Virus record (IMG/VR): IMGVR_UViG_3300041402_000464
Span: 1-59,972 of that record
Origin: a virus
Taxonomy: Duplodnaviria; Caudoviricetes
Strand: one strand, 5' to 3'
Length of the DNA stretch: 59,972 bases
The number at the start of each line of letters is the position of its first letter. Positions within the stretch are counted from its first letter, which is position 1. The notes under the pieces were generated by a model. That model saw nothing but the letters and a program-made list of their open reading frames with translations. It made no database searches and was not told where the DNA came from. Positions 5,245 through 48,207 of the stretch are shown piece by piece. The translations under genes and the position numbers were made by a program.

Positions 5245-5346
5245 TGACGCAGGACCAAATCAATAAATCAAGAGGAGGTGGCTTATGCACTCATAAAATA
5301 AAGGGTTCCGGCATACCTTAGCCGAGTTGCATTTTGGAAGTTACTT

Positions 5347-5383
5347 AAGGGGGAGAGTGATGGGTCGCCCTCCCCCTTATTTT
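5347..5383 (+). terminator. Terminator-like hairpin
   Basis: AAGGGGGAG...CTCCCCCTT followed by ATTTT. Confidence 0.5.
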
Positions 5384-5459
5384 AAAGCTTATGAGTCTTT
5401 GTATATCTTCTCTTGGAGGGTATACCAAGTTTCATAAATCAAAAGAGTGTGAGGTTGAT

Positions 5460-7222: not shown

Positions 7223-7560
7223 TGTCCCAGATAAATGATCTATGCCGTAAGGCGCACGAAACAGCCAAGGAGAAAGGCTGGCATGAAAAGGAGGTACCGG
7301 TATCTGAATTTATCTCTAATACTCATGGCGAGCTATCAGAGGCCTTTGAAGAATACAGAAAAGGGTTCCCTTTGAGAGCAATATATTATTCTGGCGAGGA
7401 AAAGGAGAAGCCAGAGGGTTTTTCTGTTGAACTCGCTGATGCAGTTGTCAGAATTTTCGACTTCTGCGGTCTCCATGGTATTGATCTCGAAAAAGCCATA
7501 CAGATAAAAATGGCTTTCAATAAAACCAGATCATACCGCCACGGGGGGAAGATCGTATGA
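7222..7560 (+). CDS. MazG-like nucleotide pyrophosphohydrolase
   Basis: HGELSEAFEEYR...ELADAVVRIFD...KMAFNKTRSYRHGGK. Confidence 0.85.
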   Translation: MSQINDLCRKAHETAKEKGWHEKEVPVSEFISNTHGELSEAFEEYRKGFPLRAIYYSGEEKEKPEGFSVELADAVVRIFDFCGLHGIDLEKAIQIKMAFNKTRSYRHGGKIV

Positions 7561-8408
7561 GTGATATCCCGGAGAAGATAATCCTTGAGCCAGGTATCTA
7601 TCCAGATATCTCCAATGAAGACTATCACAATAAAATTGAGGGGGTAAGCAACTCTTGGCTGCAAAAATTCAAGTATTGCCCTGCTAATGCCATACTTCAA
7701 CAGAATAGTGAGGCAGATCACTTTGTTTTCGGACGAGCCTTTCACGCCTTAGTCTTGGAAGGCCCCGTTGTTTTCAATAACGAGTTTGCTGTTTCTCCTG
7801 ACCCGCCCTGCCCTGCCGATAGAAACCCTAAAGGATGGCGTAATACAACTGATTATAAGGCTGCCATAGCAAAATTTAAGGCTCAAAATATAGGCAAAGC
7901 TCTCATAAGCTTGGAAGACTACAAACACCTCAAAGGGATGGACTCTGCGGTCAAGAAACATCCTCTAAGCAAAGAGGTCTTAAAAGACGGTATTCCTGAG
8001 CAAACTGTTATCTGGATAGATGAAGACACGGGGCTAAGGTGTAAGTGTAGACCTGATTGGATACCCACTGGTGACAACAATGCTTTAGCTGATCTTAAAT
8101 CTGCGAAGGGTGCGGCCTACCATGCATTCAAAAGATCTATGTGGGATTATGGTTATGATCGGCAGGCTGCTTTTTATCTTGATGGATACAATGCGGCAAC
8201 AGGTTCAGAGTTTGATGCCTTTGTTTTCCCTGTAGTAGAGAAGAAACCTCCATATCTAACAGGTTGTTATCCTGTGGGCGAAGAAAGTATGACCAGGGGG
8301 AGAGTGGAATATAAAAAGCTTTTAGGCCAGGTAAAGGAATGTATGGAAACCGGATACTGGCCACCTTATGTTCTTGATTGGCGAGAGCCAGATCAAAGCG
8401 AACTTTAA
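7557..8408 (+). CDS. recE: RecE-like exonuclease VIII (PD-(D/E)xK, DUF3799)
   Basis: GIYPDISNEDYH, FGRAFHALVLE, CKCRPDW, DLKS, YDRQAAFYLDG. Confidence 0.85.
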   Translation: MSDIPEKIILEPGIYPDISNEDYHNKIEGVSNSWLQKFKYCPANAILQQNSEADHFVFGRAFHALVLEGPVVFNNEFAVSPDPPCPADRNPKGWRNTTDYKAAIAKFKAQNIGKALISLEDYKHLKGMDSAVKKHPLSKEVLKDGIPEQTVIWIDEDTGLRCKCRPDWIPTGDNNALADLKSAKGAAYHAFKRSMWDYGYDRQAAFYLDGYNAATGSEFDAFVFPVVEKKPPYLTGCYPVGEESMTRGRVEYKKLLGQVKECMETGYWPPYVLDWREPDQSEL

Positions 8409-8430
8409 TAATTCAATAAAGGATAATAAA

Positions 8431-8643
8431 ATGAAATCGTATATAGGATGCAAGATAATACAAGCAGAAAAAATGACACAGGGCGCTTTTTTAGATGAAA
8501 AAGAAGCTCCTGTACCTACCGAGGCCGTTGGAAGGAAAGGCTATAAGGTAAAATACCCGGACGGATATACAAGCTGGTCTCCCAAAGAAGCTTTTGAATT
8601 AGCTTATAGGAAAATAACTGATTCAGAAAAAGAACTAATTTAA
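8431..8643 (+). CDS. Conserved small phage protein (YIGxK...GYKVKYPDGYTSWSPKEAFE family)
   Basis: Recognisable widespread phage motif; start re-assigned to ATG 8431. Confidence 0.7.
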   Translation: MKSYIGCKIIQAEKMTQGAFLDEKEAPVPTEAVGRKGYKVKYPDGYTSWSPKEAFELAYRKITDSEKELI

Positions 8644-8794
8644 TTCAATTTGATGGGGTGAGGTGAAGCTAAAACAATAGTGTTGGAACTTCATACTCTG
8701 AGGCAATGGTGTCTTGCAAAGCATTTGATGTGCGTTATCTTGTAGGATATAGCCCCCATCAATCTTTTAAATACAATAACGAAAGGAGAAAATT

Positions 8795-9841
8795 ATGTCT
8801 GAAAGAAAACAGTTTGAACTGATGGCGCTGGAGGCTAAAGGTGCCTTCTTAAAGGTTTCCGATGAGGCAACTTTCAGTAAGGAGATTATGTATGCCTTGC
8901 AGATATTAAGGGGGAGTTCGTACTTACAAAGATGTGCGCCTCAAACGATTAAAAACGCTGTCACAAACATAGCTTTGACAGGTGCAACATTAAATCCTGC
9001 GCTACAACAGGCGTTTCTTATACCTAGAAATATAATGGTAGACGGCAAAAAAGTAATGTCCTGCTGCCTAGATTTCTCTTACAGGGGCCTCATTAAGATT
9101 GCAACCGATACCGGAAGCGTTACCCATTGGGATGCTGTAGAGGTTTTCGAGGGTGACGACTTTGGAATAATACAGGGTTCCGAAAATCCTCACGTTCATC
9201 ATATCCCAAAATTCCCACGCGACCCACAAGCTCCATTAATAGCTGTTTATTCCAGAGCAACCCTGCATAACGGGGATAAGTCTTTTCTGGTCATGGAGAG
9301 GCATGAAATTGAGGCCACAAGGAAGACCTCTCAATGCCCTGAATCCCCAGCTTGGAAAAATCAATACGGGGAGATGTCTAAAAAAACGGTAATGAAACGG
9401 CACTACAAGACTCTACCCCAGACAGATCGCATGGCCGAGGCTATTCAGGTCTTAAATGAGCATGAGGGCTTCGAGGTCAAAAAGAAGGGTGATAAGGCTA
9501 AAGATATCCTCAATAGATTCGGCTGTGATAATTCGGAAGAGGCTGAATACACAGATATGAACGAGACTCCAAGAGGTGAAGAGGCGTCGGTAGAGAAGAA
9601 ACCGGAAGCAGCCCCTGGAAGCCCCGAGAAGAAGGAAGCTGCCAAACCAAAGGGTAGTGCCTCTCCTGCACAGATCAAGAAGATTCAAACCGTTATGAGC
9701 GAGATGGGCCTTAAGTCCGAAGACGAGCAGCTTGATTGGATTACTTTCAACTTCGAGATCAAGATACCTGCGGTTGACGGCCTAAGTAAAGATCAGGCTA
9801 ATCAGATCATCAAAGGTCTTGAGAAAACAGGTAAAAAGTAA
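8795..9841 (+). CDS. recT: RecT-family ssDNA annealing protein
   Basis: TLNPALQQAFLIPR, SYRGLIKIA, PAWKNQYGEMSKKTVMKRHYKTLP. Confidence 0.9.
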   Translation: MSERKQFELMALEAKGAFLKVSDEATFSKEIMYALQILRGSSYLQRCAPQTIKNAVTNIALTGATLNPALQQAFLIPRNIMVDGKKVMSCCLDFSYRGLIKIATDTGSVTHWDAVEVFEGDDFGIIQGSENPHVHHIPKFPRDPQAPLIAVYSRATLHNGDKSFLVMERHEIEATRKTSQCPESPAWKNQYGEMSKKTVMKRHYKTLPQTDRMAEAIQVLNEHEGFEVKKKGDKAKDILNRFGCDNSEEAEYTDMNETPRGEEASVEKKPEAAPGSPEKKEAAKPKGSASPAQIKKIQTVMSEMGLKSEDEQLDWITFNFEIKIPAVDGLSKDQANQIIKGLEKTGKK

Positions 9842-10050: not shown

Positions 10051-10458
10051 ATGGGTAAGCGTGGTGAGATTCATCCGGTATACGGTATGACGGAAGCGGC
10101 TTTCTTTGGTAAGTTTAGAGCAGCCATAAGGAAGGAATGGCGCAATAGTAAAATGTATAAAGATGTAGTCTTAAAGGCACGAATACCATGCACCGACGGT
10201 AGTAGAAAGAAGTGGGTAGTGCCTTGCGCTGACTGCGGTACGTTATATTATCTTGACCAAAGAATTAAGGTTCCTACTGCCGATGGCAAGAAGATGAAAG
10301 ATGTTCCGGCATACCAAAGAGATCATAAGACTGACGCTGGTTCATGTAGGACGTTTAAAGAGATAGGGGAGTTTGCTGAGAAAATGAATTGTCCATCTGA
10401 AGAGTTGCAGATAATGTGCTACCACTGTCACTATAAGAAAACACATAAAAAGGAGTAG
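10051..10458 (+). CDS. Zn-binding HNH-like phage endonuclease
   Basis: CADCG ... RDH ... LQIMCYHCHYKKT. Confidence 0.65.
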   Translation: MGKRGEIHPVYGMTEAAFFGKFRAAIRKEWRNSKMYKDVVLKARIPCTDGSRKKWVVPCADCGTLYYLDQRIKVPTADGKKMKDVPAYQRDHKTDAGSCRTFKEIGEFAEKMNCPSEELQIMCYHCHYKKTHKKE

Positions 10459-10464
10459 GTTGCC

Positions 10465-10947
10465 ATGGCAAGTGAATCAACTCAGTTCAAAGAAGGCGAG
10501 GAACACACCAACTGGAAAGGTGGATATTATTATGATGCTTGTGGATACAAAAGAATATTAATATCCAAAAATACCTATCGGTGTGAGCATGTACTTGTCA
10601 TGGAAAAACATCTTGGCAGAAACCTGTTAGCAGATGAGATTGTCCATCATAAAAATGGGGTAAGGGACGATAACAGGTTAGAAAATTTAGAGTTGATGTC
10701 TCGGAGCCAGCACAACCGACTTCATCAAACCGGGAAAAAGGCTTCGGAAGAAACAAGGGCAAAATTTAGGCGTCTCAGGAAGGGTACAAATCAAAAAGAA
10801 AGTCATAACCAGTGGAGGTCTGATATAACTAAAGACAAAGTAATAGATGTTATCGCGCAAACAAAAACATTTAAAGAGGCAGCTAAATTTTTAAATATAA
10901 CTGCCGATGCACTAAGGATACGACGAAAATATTATAATTTAAAATAA
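10465..10947 (+). CDS. HNH homing endonuclease (NUMOD3-like tail)
   Basis: NWKGG, EHVLVMEKHLGR, VHHKNGVRDDNRLENLELMSRSQHNRLH. Confidence 0.9.
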   Translation: MASESTQFKEGEEHTNWKGGYYYDACGYKRILISKNTYRCEHVLVMEKHLGRNLLADEIVHHKNGVRDDNRLENLELMSRSQHNRLHQTGKKASEETRAKFRRLRKGTNQKESHNQWRSDITKDKVIDVIAQTKTFKEAAKFLNITADALRIRRKYYNLK

Positions 10948-10959
10948 GGAGGTTTAAAT

Positions 10960-11397
10960 ATGTCAGGTTTAAATAAGGTCCAGCTCATTGGTAATGTGTG
11001 TCATGACCTTGAAGTGAGATACACAAAAAGCGGCCAGGCCGTGACGAGTTTTAGTCTTGCAACTAATGAAAGGTGGACGAAAAAAGACGGCACAAAAGAG
11101 GACAAGACAGAATTTCATCGCATTGTGATCTGGGGGAAGCTGGCTGAAATATCAGGGGAATATCTCTCTAAAGGAAAACAAATTTACGTCGAGGGTAAAA
11201 ATCAGACAAGGGAGTGGGACGATAAAGAGGGTAATAAGAAGCAGACTACAGAGGTTGTGTGTCACGTTATGACTATGCTTGGTCAGGCTTCGGGTTCTTC
11301 CTCTCCGTCTACTGGTGACAGTTCTGCTTCGTCTGGTGGCCAACAAAGCTCAAGCGATGGAGAACCAGACTTCGAGGACGACGACATCCCTTTTTGA
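10960..11397 (+). CDS. ssb: Single-stranded DNA-binding protein
   Basis: LNKVQLIGN OB-fold start, C-terminal DDDIPF. Confidence 0.97.
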   Translation: MSGLNKVQLIGNVCHDLEVRYTKSGQAVTSFSLATNERWTKKDGTKEDKTEFHRIVIWGKLAEISGEYLSKGKQIYVEGKNQTREWDDKEGNKKQTTEVVCHVMTMLGQASGSSSPSTGDSSASSGGQQSSSDGEPDFEDDDIPF

Positions 11398-11519
11398 TCT
11401 ACAATTTGTGAGGTGGCAACAAAGCCTGTCAATCAACTGTCAATTGCATTGATACCTAACGGGCCTCACGATCCTTAATTTCATTGAATCCACTATTACA
11501 GTGGATTCATTAAAGGGAA

Positions 11520-11643
11520 GGATAACGCCATTATCAGCGGCCGCATTTAGAAGGGAGACCTATGAACACTGAAACGGGAACAGAAAGCAACACAGATCAA
11601 AGTGAGACAACGGTTAGCGGTCGGTTGCATAAATTTGTTATGC
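11520..11643 (-). repeat. attC site A (124 bp)
   Basis: Minus strand: GCATAAC AAATT TATGCAAC CGACCGC...GCGGCC GCTGATA ATGGC GTTATCC. Confidence 0.8.
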
Positions 11644-11876
11644 CTGTCGTGCTTGGAGAAGGTAAAAAGTGGGATCGGACAATCCCCTTCTCAAAACTAA
11701 GCGAGGAACTGGCTGAAAGGAAACTCGGGCAAACTTTAAAACAACTGATGGAGTGTGGTGGGGTATCCCCCAGCGAAGCAATAGCTATTATGGAGGGCGA
11801 CGCTTGGAATCATGTATCCGATAAAATTGGTTTAGAGATATTAAACCATATATTCTATGCAGCACCAAAGGCATAA
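11562..11876 (+). CDS. Cassette 1 hypothetical protein
   Basis: RBS and ATG inside attC A loop; stop TAA in core of site B; GQTLKQLMECGGVSPSEAIAIM. Confidence 0.7.
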   Translation: MNTETGTESNTDQSETTVSGRLHKFVMPVVLGEGKKWDRTIPFSKLSEELAERKLGQTLKQLMECGGVSPSEAIAIMEGDAWNHVSDKIGLEILNHIFYAAPKA

Positions 11877-11997
11877 CGACCAAGATCAGGGGCTTGCGGG
11901 CCACCTGAGACAAAGGAGGAATTAAGACAATGACTGAAGAAGCGAAAACCCCAGACGAAACTAGTGGTAGCGAGTCCCTTGCAGCGCCTGGTTCTGC
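11871..11997 (-). repeat. attC site B (127 bp)
   Basis: Minus strand: GCAGAAC CAGGC GCTGCAAG GGACTCGC...GCAAGCC CCTGATC TTGGTC GTTATGC. Confidence 0.85.
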
Positions 11998-12211
11998 CGC
12001 GCCTAGATATTTTACCGTGGGGGAACTTTGGGGGCCATGCCCATGCTTAGTGGATGGATGCCCGAGTTATCTGGCTTGGACTATTAAATTGACTGCCGAG
12101 GAAAATAATAAGCTACCCGAGCAATCTGGACCGGAAGCTGTAAAATATATATTCAAGCATAAATTAGGAATACCAATGTGTGAAAGTTGCTTGGGAAAAG
12201 AAAAGCGGTAG
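11930..12211 (+). CDS. Cassette 2 Cys-rich hypothetical protein
   Basis: GGAGGA RBS and ATG inside attC B loop; CPC/CxxC motifs. Confidence 0.7.
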   Translation: MTEEAKTPDETSGSESLAAPGSAAPRYFTVGELWGPCPCLVDGCPSYLAWTIKLTAEENNKLPEQSGPEAVKYIFKHKLGIPMCESCLGKEKR

Positions 12212-12414
12212 AACAATTAAGCTCAGGGTCTTCGGACGCTGGAGGAGGCGGAAAGATGGATTGTGTAAATACAGAATGTGATGGATATGATGAAAACTGT
12301 GTGGATAACTGTAGTGCGTCAGATATGTATAAAGCTGAAGAGTGTTGTGACTATAAACCCCTTAAAGCCCAGACAGAACCCGTGGCCGAAGTACCTTGCA
12401 GCGCCGGGTTATCT
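12208..12414 (-). repeat. attC site C (207 bp, long coding loop)
   Basis: Minus strand: AGATAAC CCGGC GCTGCAAG GTACTTCGG...CCGAAGAC CCTGAGC TTAATT GTTCTAC. Confidence 0.85.
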
Positions 12415-12570
12415 GTGGAGCTATTAAAAGAAAGATGTGAGGGACTAGAAACCATTCAAACCTGTTTCGAAGATGCGGCAAAAAATGTGATTACCGGATG
12501 GGAATCGGATGATAAGCAAATGTTTATTAGAGGGATAAAGGGATTGCAGATATTAATGGGGAACAGATAA
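12256..12570 (+). CDS. Cassette 3 Cys-rich hypothetical protein
   Basis: GGAGGAGG RBS, ATG 12256 inside attC C loop; stop in core of site D. Confidence 0.7.
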   Translation: MDCVNTECDGYDENCVDNCSASDMYKAEECCDYKPLKAQTEPVAEVPCSAGLSVELLKERCEGLETIQTCFEDAAKNVITGWESDDKQMFIRGIKGLQILMGNR

Positions 12571-12620
12571 CTATGAATTCAGAGCGAGCGTTAGCGATGC
12601 GCTGCAATGGCGTGTTATGG
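12565..12620 (-). repeat. attC site D (56 bp)
   Basis: Minus strand: CCATAAC ACGCC ATTGCAGC GCATCGCTAACGCTCGC TCTGAAT TCATA GTTATCT. Confidence 0.85.
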
Positions 12621-12647
12621 CACATGATTATCTAGGAGGATAAAAAA

Positions 12648-12848
12648 ATGGGGTTGGTAAACGGATTATTAAGATGTAAAAACTCTACAAGTGGAGAACA
12701 TTCTTGGAGAGGCTCGGACGAACAGAGAGCGCCTAGAGACAGAGGCAAGCCCGAAGTGTGTAGCTTATGCAATCAATTTCTTGAAACCGTAAAGAAGAGA
12801 ACAGAAGATTATCGTCAAGCCCTAGAAGAAGGGCGCGAAACATTTTAG
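12648..12848 (+). CDS. Cassette 4 hypothetical protein
   Basis: AGGAGG RBS; C...H...CSLC. Confidence 0.65.
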   Translation: MGLVNGLLRCKNSTSGEHSWRGSDEQRAPRDRGKPEVCSLCNQFLETVKKRTEDYRQALEEGRETF

Positions 12849-12855
12849 GATTGTG

Positions 12856-12925
12856 CCATAACTGTGAGCTAAATCGCTGACATAAACGAAGTGTTGGCAG
12901 TCGAAATTTCAGCGCTTTGTTATGC
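12856..12925 (-). repeat. attC site E (70 bp)
   Basis: Minus strand: GCATAAC AAAGC GCTGAAAT...ATTTAGC TCACA GTTATGG. Confidence 0.8.
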
Positions 12926-12948
12926 GCTGGCTAATTAAGGAGGATAAA

Positions 12949-13152
12949 TTGGAAGAGATGATAAATAAGATATGCGGTCAATTGCCGGAAGGCTGGGAAA
13001 TAAACTTGTGCATGGAAAACGGTGCGGCCTGGGTGGAGTTAATTAGCCAGAACGGAAACGGAGGAGAGGACATGCATATAGATGGGGGAGATAAAACCCT
13101 TGAAGAGCAATTAAATGAGGCATTGTGTGTTGCTAACGGGTTTAGCGCATAA
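12949..13152 (+). CDS. Cassette 5 hypothetical protein
   Basis: AGGAGG RBS then TTG (or ATG 12958); LPEGWEINLCMENGAAWVEL; stop in core of site F. Confidence 0.7.
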   Translation: MEEMINKICGQLPEGWEINLCMENGAAWVELISQNGNGGEDMHIDGGDKTLEEQLNEALCVANGFSA

Positions 13153-13275
13153 CGATGGAGCTAACCAGCCACGGGGTAAAGGCTAAAGCCCTCAAGTTAG
13201 CATTATTATTTATTAACCTTTCCCTTATCCAACTTGACACCTCTGTTAGTGGTCTGGTTGAGCGTGGGGTTAGGT
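13147..13275 (-). repeat. attC site F (129 bp)
   Basis: Minus strand: ACCTAAC CCCAC GCTCAACC AGACCAC...GTGGCT GGTTAGC TCCATC GTTATGC. Confidence 0.9.
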
Positions 13276-13796
13276 GATGAAGCGTTGGTTGAAATATCTT
13301 CCTTTTGCGGCAACGGTTCGGCTGTTTTTTTATGAAGAGCCGATGACTGAGAAGCGGATACTTCTTGAGACACTGTATTTTTCATTTTTGCTTGGAGGTA
13401 TATCGTGCCCATTGACGCTGTGGCTGCTATTAAAGCTCCAAGCAGGGCACCAATGAAAGCAAAAATTGCTAATTTTTTAGATAAAGCAATTTGCTTGCCG
13501 TGAATTTCAAGAGTGAGGTCTTCTTGTTTCTGATAAATTTCACGTGTAAGTTCAGCTTGTTTATCGTGAAGACGTCTAGCAGAAGAAGATTGATCGGAGG
13601 CAAGATTATGGTTGGCGCGAAGTTGTTCTTCAAGAAGTTGTTCGTTGAGACTATGTTGCTCTTCAAGTGACTTGTTTTTTAGAACAAGTTTAATAATCTC
13701 GAAGTCTGAGCTGGTGCCACCAAGTTGAGCAATAGCATGACAAAGATCAGATGGTTGCATGGAACTATAATATAAAAATTTTTCTGATGGATTCAT
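13206..13796 (-). CDS. Cassette 6 coiled-coil protein with TM helix (only canonically oriented cassette gene)
   Basis: 196-aa ORF, TM LAIFAFIGALLGALIAATAS; starts just after core of site G and reads into attC F. Confidence 0.7.
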   Translation of the reverse strand: MNPSEKFLYYSSMQPSDLCHAIAQLGGTSSDFEIIKLVLKNKSLEEQHSLNEQLLEEQLRANHNLASDQSSSARRLHDKQAELTREIYQKQEDLTLEIHGKQIALSKKLAIFAFIGALLGALIAATASMGTIYLQAKMKNTVSQEVSASQSSALHKKTAEPLPQKEDISTNASSPNPTLNQTTNRGVKLDKGKVNK

Positions 13797-13805
13797 ATTT
13801 TAAAC

Positions 13806-13876
13806 ACCTAACGAAAAAGCTAACCCTGTTGGCTGAACGGAGTGAAGACAATCCGTGGTTGAGCGCGGGGTTAGAC
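13806..13876 (-). repeat. attC site G (71 bp)
   Basis: Minus strand: GTCTAAC CCCGC GCTCAACC...GGTTAGC TTTTTC GTTAGGT. Confidence 0.9.
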
Positions 13877-13891
13877 AAAATGGAGGTTGAC

Positions 13892-14095
13892 ATGGGATGG
13901 TTAACAAGGTTATTTGGGCAGAGTGGGAAAGTAAGGTTTGAAGGCGTGACTATCGAAGGGCAAAAATTTACAGGGAAAGTTAAAATAGAAATATTTAACA
14001 TGGACAAAGAGGAAATTGAAGCCAAGCTGAAAGATATGCTTTATGTAGAAACTGGACAGAAAGCAAGAGAGCTTCATATTGTGGCTTTTGTCTAA
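13892..14095 (+). CDS. Cassette 7 hypothetical protein
   Basis: GGAGG RBS, MGWLTRLFG; stop in core of site H. Confidence 0.7.
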   Translation: MGWLTRLFGQSGKVRFEGVTIEGQKFTGKVKIEIFNMDKEEIEAKLKDMLYVETGQKARELHIVAFV

Positions 14096-14154
14096 CGACC
14101 AAGATCACCGGAAGGCACCGCAGGTGACTTTCCGTGTGAAGCGCATTGTTATCT
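14090..14154 (-). repeat. attC site H (65 bp)
   Basis: Minus strand: AGATAAC AATGC GCTTCACAC GGAAAG...CCTTCC GGTGATC TTGGTC GTTAGAC. Confidence 0.8.
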
Positions 14155-14181
14155 TGCGCTATTAATAGAGAGGATAAGTCA

Positions 14182-14361
14182 ATGAATGATTTTATAAAGT
14201 TATTGAAGAAGTTACTTGTTGCCGAAAACAATAAAACAGAGGAAGAAGCTGAAAGGATTGTGAAGAAGCATCCTAACATTGTGACGCAGGGGATTATGAG
14301 CAACAGATTGAGAGCGACAGCTATGGCATTAGAAATGGCCGAAGATAAGGAAGCAAGATAA
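14182..14361 (+). CDS. Cassette 8 hypothetical protein
   Basis: GAGAGG RBS; stop in terminal core site. Confidence 0.65.
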   Translation: MNDFIKLLKKLLVAENNKTEEEAERIVKKHPNIVTQGIMSNRLRATAMALEMAEDKEAR

Positions 14362-14385
14362 CCTTAGAATATGTGGACATTTAAT
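14356..14385 (-). other. attI-like / primary insertion site (single core, no hairpin partner)
   Basis: Minus strand ...GTCCACATATTCTAAG-GTTATCTTGC; core complementary to the other end of cassette 8. Confidence 0.5.
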
Positions 14386-14398
14386 CTTGAGATAGATT

Positions 14399-14770
14399 GT
14401 GGATAAGTTTGCTAAACATAAGAAACTTAGAAAGAATCAGCGTAATAGGAAGCAATATTTGCGCTTAAATTCTGACGAGCCTATTCGAGAACCATATTAT
14501 CAGCCACCCCAGTTAAGAGGTATCAGGATTTACGGCGACATGGATATGGGATATCTCAGGCTTATCTATATTTCCTTATGGAATAGCGGAAGGATCGACT
14601 CATATTTTGTCAGAAGAGAAAAGCCTGAGAATATAGGCCATAGACCTAAACTGGATGATGATCATAAAGGCTGGTGGTTGGACGATGGAGGCAATAAAAA
14701 GAAATATGGCAAGGTCAACCTTGATAAAGAGATTAGACGCGCTATGCCTGGAATAAGAAGGTTTGATTAG
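14399..14770 (+). CDS. Hypothetical basic protein
   Basis: 123-aa ORF, no tyrosine-recombinase motifs. Confidence 0.55.
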   Translation: MDKFAKHKKLRKNQRNRKQYLRLNSDEPIREPYYQPPQLRGIRIYGDMDMGYLRLIYISLWNSGRIDSYFVRREKPENIGHRPKLDDDHKGWWLDDGGNKKKYGKVNLDKEIRRAMPGIRRFD

Positions 14771-14772
14771 GC

Positions 14773-14801
14773 TTGACAATTACAAGAGTAAACCATAGGA
14801 T
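14773..14801 (+). promoter_or_regulatory. Sigma70 promoter of replication operon
   Basis: TTGACA-17nt-TAGGAT. Confidence 0.7.
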
Positions 14802-14875
14802 TAAGTATCGTTGAGTTTTGGCGATCTTCAAATACCTTTTGCGAGGACTGAAATGAAAAAATACTTTAAACATAG

Positions 14876-14956
14876 AACCCCCTTGTTATGGATGCTGGTT
14901 GCTGAAAGGCGCTGGAGCGGTCATTTCCCGTTCGCAAACTCCATGACAAGGGGGTT
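14876..14956 (+). ncRNA. Structured leader RNA, C4-antisense-like
   Basis: 17-bp stem AACCCCCTTGTTATGGA/TCCATGACAAGGGGGTT; inner CGGTC and TCGCAAA complementary to upstream TTTGCGAGGACTG. Confidence 0.45.
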
Positions 14957-14977
14957 GTGCGTTTAAGGGAGACTGTT

Positions 14978-15355
14978 ATGGAGATAAAGGAATGCCCAAA
15001 ATGTAAGTCCACGAAAGGTTACTATTTTAAAAACACGGGAAGCTATAAAGAGGCCCACTTATTCAACATTTGTGCACCTAGAGACGAGAGATTCAAAGAC
15101 ATGCACGGCTCTTTAAAGGTGTCGAGTTTAGGTAAAAACGCTTTTTGTATAACTTGTGACAGAAGGTTAGAGGAATTAGACAGGAGTCCCGACATGAAAG
15201 AGAAAAAGTTAGAGTATTATAAGGTGATCGCAGACGGCAAAGATCAAGGCATTATATTAAAAACCCACAAGCAGAAAGTGCGCACTATGAAAGTCCTCAG
15301 AGGAATAAAATTAGTTACAGCTACCGAAGAAGACATTAAAAGATACAACGGATAA
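14978..15355 (+). CDS. Zn-ribbon hypothetical protein
   Basis: CPKC ... CITC; GGGAG RBS. Confidence 0.6.
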   Translation: MEIKECPKCKSTKGYYFKNTGSYKEAHLFNICAPRDERFKDMHGSLKVSSLGKNAFCITCDRRLEELDRSPDMKEKKLEYYKVIADGKDQGIILKTHKQKVRTMKVLRGIKLVTATEEDIKRYNG

Positions 15356-15364
15356 AGGTATTAA

Positions 15365-16162
15365 ATGAAACATAATTACGTCCCAGATGGATGCTTTCTC
15401 TTAGCCAGACAGATATTTGAATCTGCTATATGGAGAGATGATCCGCACGTCCTGAAGTTGTTTATTTATTTGATGGGACAGGCTCGACATAATACGAAGC
15501 CTAAAAAATATCCTTCTTTTGAGGTCAAGCGGGGGGAACTGGTAACAAGTCTTGCAAAAATCTCTGAAGAAAATGAGTATAGCCAGAACGGAACTATCAA
15601 AACTTGGCCCCGAATGAAGATATCTAGGATGCTTGATTTACTAGAAAAACAGGGTTACGTTAAGAAGCTTTGTGACACCTATGGTACACATATAAGTATA
15701 TGTAATTACAACACTTATCAGGATATCAACAACTACAAGTGTGACAGTGGTGGTACACAAGTGTTACAGGACTGTTACAGCGGTGTTACAGGGGTGTTAC
15801 TAAACAAGAATGTAAAGAAAGGTAAGAATGTAAAGAAAGAACCGTCAGTAGGGTTTGAAGATTTCTATAAAGCATACCCTAAAAAGAAAAGCAAAGGTCA
15901 AGCTGAGAAAACTTGGCATAAGCTTTCCCCTGATAGCGATCTTTTAAAAGAAATACTAATAGGCTTAGAGTCAGCTAAGAAGTCTGAGGACTGGACCAAG
16001 GACAATGGTAAGTATATTCCTCACCCATCAACGTGGCTAAATGCTAAAGGATGGGAAGACGAAATAACCGAGTCTAAAGACTATGAAGTAATTATAGACG
16101 GCGTATCTACTCCCATGACCGAAACAGAGTATAAGCAATGGAAGGTTGATAATGAAAGATGA
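15365..16162 (+). CDS. Phage replication initiator (replisome organizer)
   Basis: KRGELVTSLAKI, ISICNYNTYQ, FEDFYKAYPKKKSK, KYIPHPSTWLNAKGWEDE; internal iterons. Confidence 0.85.
   Translation: MKHNYVPDGCFLLARQIFESAIWRDDPHVLKLFIYLMGQARHNTKPKKYPSFEVKRGELVTSLAKISEENEYSQNGTIKTWPRMKISRMLDLLEKQGYVKKLCDTYGTHISICNYNTYQDINNYKCDSGGTQVLQDCYSGVTGVLLNKNVKKGKNVKKEPSVGFEDFYKAYPKKKSKGQAEKTWHKLSPDSDLLKEILIGLESAKKSEDWTKDNGKYIPHPSTWLNAKGWEDEITESKDYEVIIDGVSTPMTETEYKQWKVDNER
15739..15840 (+). repeat. Putative replication origin: iterons plus A-rich repeat inside the initiator gene
   Basis: TGTTACAG at 15762, 15773, 15784 and TGTTACTA at 15795 (11-nt period), then AAGAATGTAAAGAAAG twice. Confidence 0.75.
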
Positions 16163-17189: not shown

Positions 17190-17392
17190 GCGAAGCGTAT
17201 TCAGTTGGTGCGGTAAAGGTGATAATGAAAGGATATGTTTCCGGGGGCCTCATGAAACTAAAGAAAGAGTTCCCAGAGGCTTACCGCGATATGGAAATAA
17301 AGCTTGAAAGAAATTTTACTCAGGATGGAGTTGATAAATATGTTAAAGATTTAATCTTCGGGCTAAAAAAAATAGGATATTGGAATGTCTAA
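17177..17392 (+). CDS. Hypothetical protein
   Basis: Coupled ORF with GAGGAG RBS. Confidence 0.55.
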   Translation: MDQVSEAYSVGAVKVIMKGYVSGGLMKLKKEFPEAYRDMEIKLERNFTQDGVDKYVKDLIFGLKKIGYWNV

Positions 17393-18086
17393 ACTCACTG
17401 ATTCAGCGATAAAAATTACACGTAAAGACCATCAAATTTGTGTGATTTATAAAATAGTGAATAATACTAACGGTAAAATTTACGTAGGCCAAACGGTTAA
17501 TTTATATGACCGCTACAAGAGACATAAACGCAGCCTTGCGGAAGCAGATGAACATAATAGACCCTTGGTTTCTGCATTTAAGAAATATGGATTTGAAAAT
17601 TTCTCTTTCATGATTCTTGAAAACATTGATTGTGATACAAAAAAAATAACAGAAAGAGAACAGTACTGGATGGATAAATTTCAGAGTTGCAGAAAGAGCA
17701 ATGGATATAATGCTTGTCCTGCGGCTGGGTCTCCTTTCGGATATAAACATTCAGATGAAACAAAAGCTAAAGTGTCAGCGGCTTCAAAAAGGAGAAGGCA
17801 TACAGATGAAACAAAGAAAAAAATGTCTGAGATACAGAAAGGTAAAGTGATAAGTGCTGAAACGAGAAGAAAGATTAGTGAGTCTAAGAAAGGGGTAACT
17901 CCGAATAGGGTATATGGTAAAAAAGTGATTCAGTTTGATAAGGTAACTAATAAACAGATTGCTGAATTTAAAAGTGTAACTAAGGCCAGTAAGGAAATAG
18001 GGGTACATTTATCAAGTATTGCAAGAGCATGTAAAGTTAAAAGATATACCGCTGGTGGTTTTTTTTGGAGATATGCTAATGTCTAA
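17385..18086 (+). CDS. GIY-YIG homing endonuclease with NUMOD3/NUMOD1 repeats
   Basis: VIYKIVNNTNGKIYVGQT, REQYWMD, GYN, repeated HSDETKAKVS/HTDETKKKMS. Confidence 0.9.
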   Translation: MSKLTDSAIKITRKDHQICVIYKIVNNTNGKIYVGQTVNLYDRYKRHKRSLAEADEHNRPLVSAFKKYGFENFSFMILENIDCDTKKITEREQYWMDKFQSCRKSNGYNACPAAGSPFGYKHSDETKAKVSAASKRRRHTDETKKKMSEIQKGKVISAETRRKISESKKGVTPNRVYGKKVIQFDKVTNKQIAEFKSVTKASKEIGVHLSSIARACKVKRYTAGGFFWRYANV

Positions 18087-19767: not shown

Positions 19768-20082
19768 ATCCCCTCCTCAACGCATTTAAAATCTATGCAG
19801 TTATTACTCACTCCAAGCCTTTTGGCTGTTAAAGCTTTACCTTTTAACATCTGAGGTATAGTTAATCCCTCTACTGGCATAGAACAAACTTTTTTCCCTT
19901 TGTAATAAAATTGAATCATAACTTTTTCTCCTTTGATTTAAGTGTAAAGCTGGTTTGCTTGCTTTCAAGTTCATCATCAATAACCTTAAGCCGCCTTTTG
20001 AATTCCTCATAATTAATCAGGTTGGCTCTGTAGTCATAAAAGACTGTGGCGCATCGAACTTTTAAACTATCCATCTGGCCCC

Positions 20083-20418
20083 CTATTTCTTAAAATGCGG
20101 ATCGTCCGGCACTTTCAAGCCATATTTAGCGGCAAGATGTTTGTATTCATGTGCCATACACTCCTCTGGCCAAGGAACATAGCAATGAAGATCGTTTTTA
20201 CTTGAGACAAAGAATCCAGTATATTCGCCTCGCTCACTCATCCCTACCTTTTCCCTATCCCAGCGCCAGTTATAAGTATAGGCGTTTTCCATTGCTACAC
20301 GCGATTCGTGCAGGATTAGAGTGTGCCTACTTATCTCTATCCTCTGGGGCTTATAGGCATGGTGAGCGCATCCGGTTTGTAGTAACAGCATTCCGGTTAA
20401 AACATATCTATGCTTCAA
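20083..20418 (-). CDS. Putative lipoprotein with HExxH motif
   Basis: LLLQTG-C lipobox-like; AHEYKH. Confidence 0.5.
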   Translation of the reverse strand: MKHRYVLTGMLLLQTGCAHHAYKPQRIEISRHTLILHESRVAMENAYTYNWRWDREKVGMSERGEYTGFFVSSKNDLHCYVPWPEECMAHEYKHLAAKYGLKVPDDPHFKK

Positions 20419-25490: not shown

Positions 25491-25934
25491 ATGAATAGGA
25501 AAATAATAACCGACGAGAAGTTCTTGACTCAAACAAGTGTCGAGGCCAACCTTGCCATTATCAAGCAGGATTCTCCCATCATTCAAGATCTTATAAAGGT
25601 TGCCGAGGAGAACAAAGATTATTGCCTTTGTCTCACTGGCAACCAGATCGGATACTATGAAAAGGTGCTGGTAATTAAAACCAACGCCGGGTCATGGGCC
25701 GCGATCATCAATCCTACCATCATTGCCAAGCATGGGGGCCGGAAGAAAAGCCGTGAGCTATGCCTTTCCCATCCAGGCAAAAGAATAATCACCAAGAGAT
25801 ATAAAGAGATCACTGTTACATACCATGTTTTTGACGATGATGGTAAGCTGATCGGTCTTAAAAGCAAGTTCAAAGGTCTGCCGGCGGTAACGATACAGCA
25901 TGCCATAGATCATTTCAACGGTGAGGCAATATGA
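25491..25934 (+). CDS. def: Peptide deformylase homolog with degenerate motifs
   Basis: CLCLTGNQIG, INPTI, ELCLSHPG, QHAIDHFNG versus canonical GxGxAAxQ, EGCLS, QHExDHLxG. Confidence 0.85.
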   Translation: MNRKIITDEKFLTQTSVEANLAIIKQDSPIIQDLIKVAEENKDYCLCLTGNQIGYYEKVLVIKTNAGSWAAIINPTIIAKHGGRKKSRELCLSHPGKRIITKRYKEITVTYHVFDDDGKLIGLKSKFKGLPAVTIQHAIDHFNGEAI

Positions 25935-37102: not shown

Positions 37103-38941
37103 ATGGAAAAATTAGTAAAATACGGAGAGGAATTTGTTTTCTATATCTCCCTAAAGACAGCCGGTTCTGACGCATATCAGGTTAATCCTACTCTTGCGGC
37201 AGGCGATGTCAAGGTGACTCAGGATGGAGTTGACTTTGGTAATATAGATACTCTTCCGGTAGTAGCCCCAGCAGGAGGAACGCAGGTAAAGGTAACTGTC
37301 TCTGTAGCGGAATTGACCGGTAAACAGATCCAGATTCAATTCATCGATGCGGCTGGGGCTGAGTGGAAGGCAGGTACAATCAATATCTCAACCTATGCCC
37401 ACGCAGACGCGCAACATCCTTATAGGGGAGAAGGTATTTACGACCGAGTTATTACAAGTACTAATCACAATGTCACTAAATCAGCCGCTAAATTTCTCAG
37501 GAGTACTGAAGAGTATCAAGGGTATGAGGGTGGTTTTATTTATATTGATACAGTTAATGGTACGGCTGGCTCAGACCCATATACTAATGGTAAAATTGAC
37601 AAGAAAGTAAATAATTTGGCAGATGCCTTGAGTCTTGGCACAGCTCTAGGGATGAATGACTATCATGTATCGGCAGGGTCTTCTCTCACTTTTGTATCAG
37701 GGCAAGCCGGACGTTCATATATTGGTCACAATTGGTCACTAGATTTAAACGATCAAGCTATAGACGGTATCTATCTTCATGGACCAGCCGTTACTGGAGC
37801 AGCCACCGCCGTCTCAACACCGCCTAAGCTTGAAGATTGTAGCTTGAACGGGGTTACGTTGCCTCCCGGACATTATATTGCTTGCGGTTTTTCTTCCACC
37901 GTGTTAGCTGGAGCAGCAGGAGATTTTTTCTTTACGAATTGTGAATCCGATTTGGCAGGAGGCTACCCATGCTTTGACTTTAACGCATCCATCGGTGATG
38001 TTAATGCCCTGTTTAGAGAGTATCGGGGTGAGATAGAGTTTAAGAATATGGGTCAATTGGGCACAGATTTGGCCAGTGTTGACGGTAATGGTAGAGTTAA
38101 GATGAATGCTACCAGTATTGGAGGCATTATCTCGGTTCAGGGACATCAAGAACTTATAAATAGAGCAGCCTTTATTGCAGCTGGTGGAATTGTTAATGAT
38201 GCCTCAAGGTTTGCAACTGACCAATTGGCAGATGTCGGTACTATTCTTACTCTTGTTGAAGCCATTGATACTTCAACTGAACTAGCAGCAAAATTTGACG
38301 AGATTAAAGGGGCTGGCTGGACAGATGAGACTCTAAGGAGTATCAGGACCTCAATAGGATCAATAGGCGGCATCCAGGGCGCAAATGCTATTACCATTCA
38401 AATATATGAGACCGACACGACGACTCCGATAGTAGATGACACAATTGCCATATGGAATAGCGATCAATCACTTATGTTAGGTACGGCCAAAACAGATTCA
38501 AACGGACAAATTAGTATAGGGCTTGATGATGGTACATACAAGATTGTATCGCAGAAAGCAGGTATTGAATTTGATGTTCCTGAAACAATGGTTGTAACTG
38601 TTCCGGCTACTTTTACTTATTATGGAACGCCTGAGACTTATCCTGTTCCATCTAACCCTGATGCCTGTAATGTTATCTGCGATCTTAAAGATTTTGGATT
38701 AGACCCGAAGGCTGGTGTTACCTTTATCGCAAGACTGACAACTACACCTCAAGCCGTCAGTGGGGCTATTTTAAATGCGGAAGCATGGTCAAGAGATACT
38801 GATGCGGAAGGCCGGGCAATTCTTACCTTGCCACAGGGCGTTAAATTTACTATATTTTCAACAGCACTTGGGGGAGACAGTAAGACCATCCGTATTGACA
38901 CGGCGGCTCTCTCTTCGCTAATATTGGCAGATCAAGTGTAA
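37103..38941 (+). CDS. Multi-domain structural (fibre/spike-like) protein
   Basis: 612 aa, Gly/Thr beta-rich; C-terminal TDSNGQ...LDDGTY. Confidence 0.65.
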   Translation: MEKLVKYGEEFVFYISLKTAGSDAYQVNPTLAAGDVKVTQDGVDFGNIDTLPVVAPAGGTQVKVTVSVAELTGKQIQIQFIDAAGAEWKAGTINISTYAHADAQHPYRGEGIYDRVITSTNHNVTKSAAKFLRSTEEYQGYEGGFIYIDTVNGTAGSDPYTNGKIDKKVNNLADALSLGTALGMNDYHVSAGSSLTFVSGQAGRSYIGHNWSLDLNDQAIDGIYLHGPAVTGAATAVSTPPKLEDCSLNGVTLPPGHYIACGFSSTVLAGAAGDFFFTNCESDLAGGYPCFDFNASIGDVNALFREYRGEIEFKNMGQLGTDLASVDGNGRVKMNATSIGGIISVQGHQELINRAAFIAAGGIVNDASRFATDQLADVGTILTLVEAIDTSTELAAKFDEIKGAGWTDETLRSIRTSIGSIGGIQGANAITIQIYETDTTTPIVDDTIAIWNSDQSLMLGTAKTDSNGQISIGLDDGTYKIVSQKAGIEFDVPETMVVTVPATFTYYGTPETYPVPSNPDACNVICDLKDFGLDPKAGVTFIARLTTTPQAVSGAILNAEAWSRDTDAEGRAILTLPQGVKFTIFSTALGGDSKTIRIDTAALSSLILADQV

Positions 38942-47155: not shown

Positions 47156-48207
47156 TGGCTGATGCGACGCCCATACTGGCGCCCCCATTAATTAACACTA
47201 CATATCTCGACGCGGAGACTGACGGCGATATAGTTGGAGTTGTATTTCAAACTCAATCTGTTCTGGGCGCCTCTCTGGTTGCCCTCCTGTATGTAGTTGA
47301 CTCCGGCAATCATCGTATTCAGGCCTTTGATTATCAGGGGAACTTTAAATTTTCCTTTGGTTCTTTTGGGACCGGCAATGGTGAATTTAATGAGCCTTAT
47401 GGTATCTGCACAGATGGAGAGAAGCTTTACGTTACCGATTCTGGAAATAACCGGGTACAGGTCTTTGATCTGTATGGTGCATATCTCTACCAGTTCGGCA
47501 CCTATGGAACTGCCACGGGAGAATTTGACTCACCCCGTGAGATAGCAACGGAAGGTTTATTCCTTTATGTTGCAGATGAACAGAATCATAGATTCCAAGT
47601 TTTCACAATGGATGGGTTGGATCTTCTCGCCATAGGTACTTTCGGAACTGGAGAGAATCAGTTTGAATACCCATACAATATATCCGTTGATTCTGCCTAT
47701 GTTTATGTAACAGATACCGTCAGAACTCAGACCTTTGCAAAAACATGGATACCCGATGTCTATATGGACATGACGATGCCCATGGATACCATGGAAATGG
47801 TGGCCGATACGAGGTATAGCGAGTTATCTCTTGATATGCCTATGGACACTATGGAAATGGTGGCGATCACGTCTTCTTTAGCCACTATGGATGCTGTCAT
47901 GCCGATGGATGAAATGGCAATAGTGGCTAAAATAGCAACACAGATAGCGATCATGGACGCAATAATGCCTATGGATACCATGAGAGTCACTATGGCTTCG
48001 GGTGTTTTGGTAGAATTTAACGCAGTAATGTCTATGGATACCATGAGAATTAAAATGACAACAGGTAGATTGGCAACATTAAATGCTGTCATGCCCATGG
48101 ATAAAATGGCAATAGAGGCACATCAAAGAGGAGAGGCAACCTTGGACTGTGAGATGCCTATGGATTATATGGATATGACAGCTTATTCAGGGGGGGCTTT
48201 CTGTTGA
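47155..48207 (+). CDS. NHL-repeat protein with Met-rich C-terminal repeats
   Basis: YVVDSGNHRIQAFD...FGSFGTGNGEFNEP repeats; seven MPMD(T)M units. Confidence 0.85.
   Translation: MADATPILAPPLINTTYLDAETDGDIVGVVFQTQSVLGASLVALLYVVDSGNHRIQAFDYQGNFKFSFGSFGTGNGEFNEPYGICTDGEKLYVTDSGNNRVQVFDLYGAYLYQFGTYGTATGEFDSPREIATEGLFLYVADEQNHRFQVFTMDGLDLLAIGTFGTGENQFEYPYNISVDSAYVYVTDTVRTQTFAKTWIPDVYMDMTMPMDTMEMVADTRYSELSLDMPMDTMEMVAITSSLATMDAVMPMDEMAIVAKIATQIAIMDAIMPMDTMRVTMASGVLVEFNAVMSMDTMRIKMTTGRLATLNAVMPMDKMAIEAHQRGEATLDCEMPMDYMDMTAYSGGAFC

Follow-up and report, generated by a model that had tools for sequence, protein, structure and literature searches.

Clusters of attC sites lacking integrase (CALINs) have already been described in phages. 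Qi et al. counted 17 of them, with a minimum of two sites each, among 10,705 NCBI phage genomes, and the virulent phages Tetrasphaera TJE1, Pseudoalteromonas PH101 and Polaribacter P12002L are among the carriers (Qi et al., 2023; PMC9892861). According to the main text of that paper, five of six phage attC recombined with attI1 under IntI1; in TJE1 three attC were reported, two of which were assayed. It also notes methyltransferase cargo in phage CALINs, and prophages of Vibrio anguillarum that acquired a piece of a chromosomal integron array. Thus, integrase-less attC clusters in phages are a known kind. Here we report an array of such sites in the IMG/VR virus record IMGVR_UViG_3300041402_000464 (G000), a stretch of 59,972 bp that carries direct terminal repeats, is rated 100% complete and is called the window below, always at its full length. 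G000 is apparently a virulent tailed phage from marine sediment.

We consider it likely that positions 11520-14362 of the window hold eight genuine integron cassettes, forming a CALIN in the early region with genes antisense to attC, and that a host IntI serves them in trans. Each cassette consists of one small open reading frame (ORF) and one attC site. The eight attC lie within 2.8 kb in a genome without intI, which is the layout of a CALIN; a complete integron would have intI next to the array, and a six-frame profile search of G000 found none there. An earlier note, made from the letters of this DNA alone, had placed the array at 11520-14385. The start at 11520 stands, but the end does not, because a lone ninth core at 14356-14362 closes the array, which thus stops at 14362.

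attC sites and cassette ends

The sites S0-S7 are integron-type attC sites. We give their coordinates from the AAC core to the GTT core, in plus-strand numbering. On the minus strand each begins with a 7-nt core that has AAC at its end; after 5 nt follow an arm bearing extra bases, the loop and the second arm, and a further 5-6 nt lead to a core that starts with GTT. The inverted cores (..AAC and GTT..) are present at both ends in all eight. The sites were scored with R2, a proxy attC covariance model used in place of IntegronFinder's own model.

11471-11523, no strand: 24-bp imperfect inverted repeat abutting the outermost core GGATAAC; conserved backbone at the left edge of the array
11520-11643, minus strand: attC S0, 124 nt, loop with the ribosome-binding site (RBS) and start codon of ORF1; R2 9.7 bits, E 3.4, full-length alignment, weak alone
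11871-11997, minus strand: attC S1, 127 nt, loop coding for the RBS and a 21-aa leader of ORF2; R2 28.6 bits, E 8.7e-5
12208-12414, minus strand: attC S2, 207 nt, unusually long, carrying the RBS and about 50 codons of ORF3; R2 10.1 bits, E 2.7
12565-12620, minus strand: attC S3, 56 nt; R2 8.0 bits, E 8.8
12856-12925, minus strand: attC S4, 70 nt; R2 24.0 bits, E 1.1e-3
13147-13275, minus strand: attC S5, 129 nt, canonical L box GCT[C]AACC / GGTTAGC; R2 44.0 bits, E 1.6e-8
13806-13876, minus strand: attC S6, 71 nt, canonical geometry 7-5-8...7-6-7; R2 39.9 bits, E 1.7e-7; single-stranded DNA fold z -3.6
14090-14154, minus strand: attC S7, 65 nt, extra bases G and T on the plus strand; R2 30.6 bits, E 2.9e-5; single-stranded DNA fold z -2.1
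14356-14362, minus strand: terminal core, GTTATCT on the minus strand, no hairpin; first cassette/backbone junction, in an attI-like position

The earlier note had read eight sites of attC geometry on the minus strand and had proposed an attC model as the check. With filters off, R2 returned 11 matches at E<=10 in the whole window, and eight of them are S0-S7 at exactly these coordinates, all on the minus strand. Five sites (S5, S6, S7, S1 and S4; 44.0 to 24.0 bits; E 1.6e-8 to 1.1e-3) are significant and three are weak; the other three matches in the window are also weak (E 2.9 to 9.7). R2 was made from the best 31 attC sites of bacterial integron arrays, and IntI above the TIGR02249 cut-off (293-480 bits) was found in four of the five tested source genomes of these sites. 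Its seed was a 17-nt pattern from S5/S6, which retrieved 120 bacterial loci in genome contigs, with a complete site in eight of the 120. A first model (R1), made from these eight bacterial sites, exposed arrays of 14, 7 and 7 sites (L175, L235 and L155, respectively), and was replaced by R2 because it was circular for S5 and S6. Since R2 descends from the same seed, the scores of S5 and S6 are still the least independent ones. As controls, R2 found three sites in Tetrasphaera phage TJE1, on the gene strand just 3' of orf1-orf3, in agreement with the three attC published for this phage, and gave 12 matches at E<1e-3 in 890 kb of other viral loci, all within 5 of 100 loci. The background loci had been retrieved with the pattern AACNNGGCGCTGCAAGG, which was too loose (at least 119 loci, mostly chance) and was rejected as a probe. 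Five IMG/VR loci retrieved with the loose pattern (L017, L094, L096, L014 and L045) hold one to three attC each at E<1e-3.

In all seven sites that it detected, S1 being below threshold, the anchored arm alignment assigned extra bases to the 5' arm of the minus strand. S3 and S4 have one further extra base each on the opposite arm, and the arm of S0 aligns as TAT[G]C[A]A.. in this scheme. This scanner, which overlooked S1 and returns about 25 background matches on each strand of 60 kb, served for arm details alone; no model was made from MAFFT alignments of the phage sites, in which the 3' arms were misaligned. S5 and S6 have C as their first extra base on the top strand, which is the canonical state; an extra G on the bottom strand is described as conserved in attC (PMC5371416). 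The plus strand as attC top strand was considered and rejected on the strand of the covariance model matches, the arm that bears the extra bases, a block of cassette body plus attC common to two relatives (G002 and G003), and the ORF starts in the loops. End complementarity cannot settle this choice of strand. Since all attC have their top strand on the phage minus strand, the bottom strand, which is the recombinogenic one, coincides with the sense strand of the operon.

Relatives, that is, other IMG/VR contigs retrieved with the same sequence patterns, carry arrays of the same sort. G005 (44 kb, 95% complete) has 8 R2 sites at E<0.03, and G001 (49 kb, 95% complete) has 27 at E<0.05 in three blocks (L129 326-13659; L131 7768-9057); portal and terminase genes mark both as true tailed phages. 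At E<=0.19, R2 found 10 sites in L035 and 8 in L073 (8 and 5 of them at E<0.01), and it found 17 sites in G002 and 8 in G003. The phage arrays found range from 8 to 27 sites, and those of G001 take up about 11.6 kb of its 49 kb. One attC of G001 is duplicated at 100% identity (positions 1-118 and 47981-48098).

Each window cassette (eight of eight) has ends that are complementary past the core. The earlier note had listed 16 end strings for this pairing and all of them are in place, at 11637/11869, 11991/12205 (the pair with one mismatch, as it had said), 12408/12563, 12614/12852, 12919/13144, 13269/13805, 13870/14086 and 14148/14353. In five phage arrays, own ends are complementary for at least 5 nt past GTT/AAC in 40 of 56 cassettes; among 3080 non-own end pairs of the same arrays, 5% reach at least 4 nt. 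The variable bases next to the core pair between the ends of one cassette, not between the ends of one site. This is the trace expected of a circular cassette that was cut and rejoined between G and TT of the core (G/TT). To our knowledge, no regulatory hairpin would give such complementarity of own ends.

Inverted cassette genes

The cassette ORFs lie on the plus strand, antisense to attC and with attC at their 5' end, in seven of eight cassettes. The earlier note had called the same seven of eight, and the ORF map, the relatives and bacterial controls all bear it out. The lone co-oriented gene (1/8) is ORF6, which runs opposite to the phage operon.

11562-11876, plus strand: ORF1, 104 aa; stop TAA inside the core GCATAAC
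11930-12211, plus strand: ORF2, 93 aa; stop TAG inside the core GTAGAAC
12256-12570, plus strand: ORF3, 104 aa, Cys-rich N-terminus; stop in the core AGATAAC
12648-12848, plus strand: ORF4, 66 aa, AGGAGG in front
12949-13152, plus strand: ORF5, 64-67 aa (start TTG at 12949 or ATG at 12958); stop in the core GCATAAC
13206-13796, minus strand: ORF6, 196 aa, coiled coil and hydrophobic segment; co-oriented with attC (canonical layout)
13892-14095, plus strand: ORF7, 67 aa; stop in the core GTCTAAC
14182-14361, plus strand: ORF8, 59 aa; stop in the core AGATAAC

The genes and the sites are interlocked. ORFs 1-3 begin within the loops of S0-S2, behind Shine-Dalgarno sequences, and in the long sites the attC loop contains the RBS, the start codon and the first 20-50 codons. 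A stop codon TAA or TAG falls within the following core in six of the seven plus-strand ORFs. None of the eight cassette proteins was above threshold in Pfam or PHROGs, and the ORF6 protein found no relative in metagenome contigs. ESM Atlas candidates for ORF6 were rejected, being generic coiled-coil look-alikes with scores <0.9.

The same polarity is seen in the relatives. Taking the longest ORF of each interval between sites, 6 of 7 in the window run antisense to attC (7 of 8 when cassette 8 is added), as do 6 of 8 in G005 and 21 of 24 in G001. Moreover, every interval (55 cassettes, five arrays) holds an antisense ORF of at least 35 aa preceded by a Shine-Dalgarno sequence; 27 of these 55 start inside attC and 32 stop in the next core. 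The 48-aa antisense ORF in window cassette 6 is probably spurious, because ORF6 is the gene there. The five large cassettes of relatives that were tested all encode DNA methyltransferases (Pfam: C5, N6/N4, MT-A70), and all five are antisense to attC. In G002 and G003, which have 60% GC, the polarity of the longest ORF is ambiguous and they were left out of the polarity count; Shine-Dalgarno sequences and GC content at third codon positions lean antisense in G002, G003 and L017, less cleanly. In L017, the ORFs preceded by Shine-Dalgarno sequences between sites are antisense to attC. On the other hand, bacterial arrays of the same attC family have large ORFs on the attC top strand; in this control four of six tested ORFs carried Pfam domains, and all four were co-oriented with attC. 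Survey pipelines that assume an ORF 5' of its attC would mis-assign antisense phage cassettes.

The array shows little sign of transcription signals of its own. Promoter-like matches in 11300-15000 number 8, vs 6.6 +/- 2.5 in shuffles, and none lies regularly ahead of the cassette ORFs; terminator-like matches in the array are at chance level. No terminator-like site was found on the plus strand of the array, and no promoter faces the array from the 14356-14362 side. The array looks like part of the early operon, because it has no promoter above chance and no plus-strand terminator-like site.

The hairpins might instead be regulatory RNA or DNA elements of the early operon, with a part in processing, translational control or termination, or targets of an unrecognised phage recombinase or nuclease, such as one of the HNH proteins upstream; their likeness to attC would then be mere resemblance. 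The sense RNA has the same hairpins, with RBS and AUG in the loop, two HNH-type ORFs lie directly upstream of the array (10051-10947), and many ORFs of the window have no known family. However, covariation of the core extensions between cassette ends needs a circular intermediate cut at the core, and the sites score, with the correct asymmetry, under a model made purely from bacterial attC. The chance level of promoter- and terminator-like matches and the absence of a plus-strand terminator-like site also speak against regulatory hairpins, as does Rfam, which gave 0 matches over the window at gathering thresholds. We regard this explanation as improbable.

Recombination functions and possible exchange between phages

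The earlier note had seen no tyrosine recombinase in this complete genome, and a search of all six frames of G000 with PF00589 and TIGR02249 was likewise empty. Serine recombinases (PF00239) and Y1 transposases (PF01797) were found in none of G000, G001 and G005, and tyrosine recombinases in none of G001, G003, G004 and G005. G002 has a tyrosine recombinase of 396 aa (37123-37632; L125/L140) about 2 kb from its 17-site array. It was rejected as IntI (26 bits vs a cut-off of 265) and is probably an ordinary phage integrase.

Annealing proteins lie directly 5' of the arrays: RecT with a PDDEXK exonuclease in G000 (7557-9841), ERF with YqaJ in G005 (L126 13713-15079) and a Rad52-like protein in G001 (L129 5671-6393). 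With the SSB gene next to the cluster of TJE1, the neighbourhood of recombination genes recurs. The earlier note had tied the place of the array next to ssb and recE/recT to the handling of single-stranded DNA there; such a mechanistic role may exist, but the recurring position could be plain synteny of early regions. The genes concerned in G000 are as follows.

7557-8408, plus strand: PDDEXK (DUF3799) exonuclease, RecE-like, in the recombination module 5' of the array; Pfam PF12684, E 4.5e-31
8795-9841, plus strand: RecT single-strand annealing protein; Pfam PF03837, E 1.3e-26
10960-11397, plus strand: SSB, the final backbone gene ahead of the array; Pfam PF00436, E 7.6e-37

Comparison with related phages, which the earlier note had proposed as a further check, found different cassettes at the same locus, and homology breaks off at the AAC/GTT cores. 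When the window is compared with G005, L035, L073 and G001, array homology is confined to attC-sized blocks bounded by cores. S1 is 90-92% identical over about 120 nt in G005 and L035 and is attached there to different ORF bodies. Copies of the S2 type, with conserved ends and a variable middle, occur three times in G005 and also in L035 and L073; 52 nt of S3 are 100% identical to a site in L073, and S7 is 85% identical to a site in L035. Matches in tblastn are confined to the leaders of ORF2 (residues 1-21) and ORF3, both of which attC encodes, and to distantly similar bodies of the S2 type. The cassettes of this type form a loose protein family (window 12256-12570; L005 665-985 and 1832-2140; L035 2258-2566; L073), with a variable Cys-rich N-terminus, a conserved segment coded by the attC arm and C-termini 37-40% identical over about 67 aa.

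Some homologous blocks are longer than one attC. G002 and G003 have in common a 232-nt block (95% identity) of a body and the attC following it on the top strand, which stops 12 nt before the attC end. Three attC blocks run 30-40 nt past the GTT core toward the gene start. These extended blocks lie at L035 3268-3370 and 700-784 vs L073 (reverse complement) 2537-2638, and in G001 vs L035 3277-3371; they reach the 5' untranslated region (UTR) of the following gene though the genes differ (N6/N4 vs C5 methyltransferase). Judging from these alignments, a module of attC plus UTR seems to recur in front of different ORFs. The G002/G003 block and the extended attC blocks fit a unit made of an attC plus the gene that starts in it or just after it.

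The locus itself is fixed at both edges. At the left edge the inverted repeat is conserved in G005 (16097-16153), L073 and G001 (5338-5393) and homology ends at the core; the repeat terminates in GGATAAC in G000, G005 and L073. At the right edge the common backbone of G005 and G004 starts directly after the equivalent AAC. The left-boundary pattern retrieved 94 loci from metagenome contigs, none with array homology in blastn. In the public marine-sediment run X1, which holds the phage and is its likely source, other contigs with the S2 site diverge at 12212 and 12412-12414. No contig of this run is joined across a whole cassette, and none of the listed contigs bridges 12241-12383. Three apparent skips in contigs of run X1 were rejected as cassette loss; they are other copies of S2- and S5-type attC, differing inside the loops.

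The conserved locus bears on whether the array is a passive passenger, i.e. a piece of a host chromosomal array gained by illegitimate recombination and without any role for the phage. The attC type of S5 and S6 does belong to the same family as chromosomal arrays of Betaproteobacteria and other bacteria (full sites in 8 of 120 pattern matches). However, host arrays are co-oriented, whereas here seven of eight genes are antisense to their attC, run in the direction of the phage operon and have Shine-Dalgarno sites. The GC content (0.42-0.43) and skew of the array agree with the rest of the phage, the locus is conserved in several phages with boundaries exactly at cores, and relatives hold typical phage accessory genes, the orphan methyltransferases. 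All of this makes a passenger very improbable.

The array might also be a relic: integron cassettes would have been captured once by an ancestor, and now only homologous exchange between attC would occur, via the annealing protein and exonuclease of the phage. Three families of annealing protein sit directly 5' of the arrays in G000, G005 and G001, and the attC types, 50-200 nt long, share 85-100% identity from cassette to cassette and from phage to phage, enough for annealing-based exchange. A crossover within attC leaves both complementary ends on the body, so the end signature would persist; the lack of an integrase in G000 and the weak folding energies at most sites would fit as well. However, homology blocks stop at cores in many independent comparisons, which exchange inside homologous segments does not predict. 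Moreover, the spacers (5 and 5-6 nt) and the strict asymmetry between strands in the extra bases are kept at all sites, in phages of 40% and of 60% GC, which implies continuing selection for recognition by an IntI-type enzyme. The attC sites of published phage clusters were active with IntI1 in the assays of the main text (PMC9892861). We consider a mere relic unlikely; exchange by annealing proteins within attC may contribute to the reshuffling and is the main rival explanation.

In the reading that we prefer, which the earlier note had also reached, a host integron integrase would act on the sites, as we infer from their kept geometry and the breaks at cores. Host IntI would work in trans on the folded plus strand, and cassettes would be excised and inserted at G/TT. 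The phages may share a pool of phage-adapted antisense cassettes, and this pool, in the relatives, would include orphan DNA methyltransferases, which are likely anti-restriction genes. Because the target site fixes the orientation of the array, only genes antisense to attC would be expressed from the phage operon, and such an expression bias would select a phage-adapted cassette pool. In bacteria, attC bottom strands on the lagging-strand template are described as folding and recombining more, and 25 of 30 chromosomal arrays as having their bottom strands on the leading-strand template (PMC5371416). Inversion in the phage would combine co-directional genes with an attC bottom strand on the strand that is most often single-stranded, the exposed strand being the lagging-strand template or the non-template strand.

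Several observations weigh against a host integrase acting on eight genuine cassettes. S2, S0 and S3 reach just 10.1-8.0 bits (E 2.7 to 8.8) and are singly non-significant. Several cores are off the strict RYYYAAC consensus, e.g. GCATAAC and GTAGAAC, and S0-S4 have a top-strand G, hence a bottom-strand C, as their first extra base. In single-stranded DNA folding, S6 (z -3.6) and S7 (z -2.1) are clearly better than shuffles, but the other five of the seven folded sites (z -1.6 to +0.9) are no more stable than shuffles, and the minimum-energy folds of S0 and S1 differ from the attC fold. The usual length of attC is about 57-141 nt, which S2 exceeds at 207 nt. No cassette body is common to the relatives, and no event of gain, loss or reordering can be reconstructed. 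Homologous recombination in the repeated attC would also reshuffle bodies and keep end complementarity. No IntI, host or excised circle is linked to the phage, and contigs cannot show rare forms. Finally, the GC skew tracks gene direction, and the argument from the lagging-strand template is something that we infer.

A wider picture is conceivable, and we offer it tentatively. Several lineages of tailed phages may keep an antisense cassette pool of their own in which attC doubles as 5' UTR and leader-coding segment; the recombinogenic strand, being the sense strand, would be exposed whenever the early operon is replicated or transcribed. Host IntI might be hijacked in trans for swaps of anti-defence and further accessory genes between co-infecting phages, at a fixed G/TT next to the recombination module, and the reuse of attC modules on unrelated ORF bodies might trace cassette genesis. 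If host integrases do shuffle these arrays, integrons are an exchange platform for accessory genes of virulent phages and not of bacterial adaptation alone. The orphan DNA methyltransferases in cassettes of the relatives are likely counter-defence genes. The consistent inversion offers a natural test of the rule by which strand exposure controls attC recombination, and the attC-leader module fused to unrelated ORFs provides a data set on how cassettes arise, which is an open question for integrons.

The rest of the genome is that of a distant tailed phage. Its genes are almost all on the plus strand, and the GC skew climbs almost monotonically, following gene direction. TerL is of the T4 type with about 30% identity to known phages, and the portal is of the SU10 type. 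No DNA nearly identical to the window was found in the phages collection, and RecT of G000 as a query retrieved no related viral loci. The early region runs from the PDDEXK exonuclease through RecT, a Cys-rich ORF, an HNH endonuclease and SSB to the array and then the replication genes. The array region is flanked by the HNH endonuclease (10465-10947) and a GIY-YIG/NUMOD homing endonuclease (17385-18086). Beyond the array, a strong promoter-like site (TTGACA, 17 nt, TAGGAT; 14773-14801) stands in the gap before the ORF at 14957-15355, and a long hairpin (14865-14967, stem 15/16 bp) lies downstream of it. The region 14773-14967 is kept in G005 (tblastx, 14800-14995 vs 20042-20237) and had no match in Rfam; a small structured RNA and an origin-like element are both conceivable. 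A peptide deformylase gene (25491-25934) precedes the packaging genes. An open frame at 51241-59970 continues at 3-1754, giving about 3,490 aa in total with an LPD38 polyvalent-protein domain. Because this frame exits the 3' end and resumes at the 5' end, the record is circularly permuted across a giant virion-protein gene.

Comparison with known systems

An integrase-less cassette array is not in itself new for a phage, as such attC clusters have been published together with IntI1 assays; the inversion, on the other hand, is not in print as far as the main text of that report goes, which does not discuss antisense ORFs, supplementary tables aside (PMC9892861). In the literature searched we did not find a systematic antisense layout, starts inside attC, reuse of attC leaders, arrays of 8-27 sites or a shared insertion point; the supplement of Qi et al., which covers all 17 CALINs, may bear on orientation. 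Thus, three things are new here, in the sense of not found in print: genes that are systematically inverted, start codons that lie within attC, and arrays of these sizes. Published phage CALINs are, as far as their main text describes them, like the window in being attC clusters without integrase that carry small ORFs and orphan DNA methyltransferases. The TJE1 cluster stands just before an SSB gene, as the array adjoins SSB in G000. However, TJE1 has three attC with co-oriented genes in the canonical layout, whereas the window has eight attC with antisense genes and ORF starts in loops, and the relatives have 8 to 27.

The PeSL (promoter-early stem-loop) mobile cassettes of T4-type phages, which Arbiol et al. 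reportedly described in 2010, are said to have an early promoter per module. They resemble the present array in their small accessory ORFs of the early region, in the repeated stem-loops at their flanks and in a gene content that varies among related phages. PeSL modules are thought to shuffle by homologous recombination. The window array differs from them in having no promoters above chance, repeats that match attC, and ends that carry the G/TT signature of circles.

Sedentary chromosomal arrays, such as those of Betaproteobacteria/Rhodocyclaceae (L175, L155) and the Vibrio superintegrons, likewise hold many short cassettes of unknown function, with attC homogeneous per lineage, unrelated genes and complementary own ends. 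In the bacterial arrays of the L175/L155 type the attC belong to the same sequence family as S5 and S6. On the other hand, the bacterial arrays have intI (four of five source genomes) and co-oriented genes, while in the phage arrays intI is missing, the genes are antisense and the attC bottom strand is the sense strand. Reverse-oriented cassettes do occur in chromosomal integrons; they are a minority of the array, mostly toxin-antitoxin cassettes with their own promoters. Their ORF is antisense to attC, as in the phage array. However, in the phages antisense is the rule (7/8 in the window, 21/24 in G001), and the cassettes are promoterless and read from the operon, with the start codon often inside attC.

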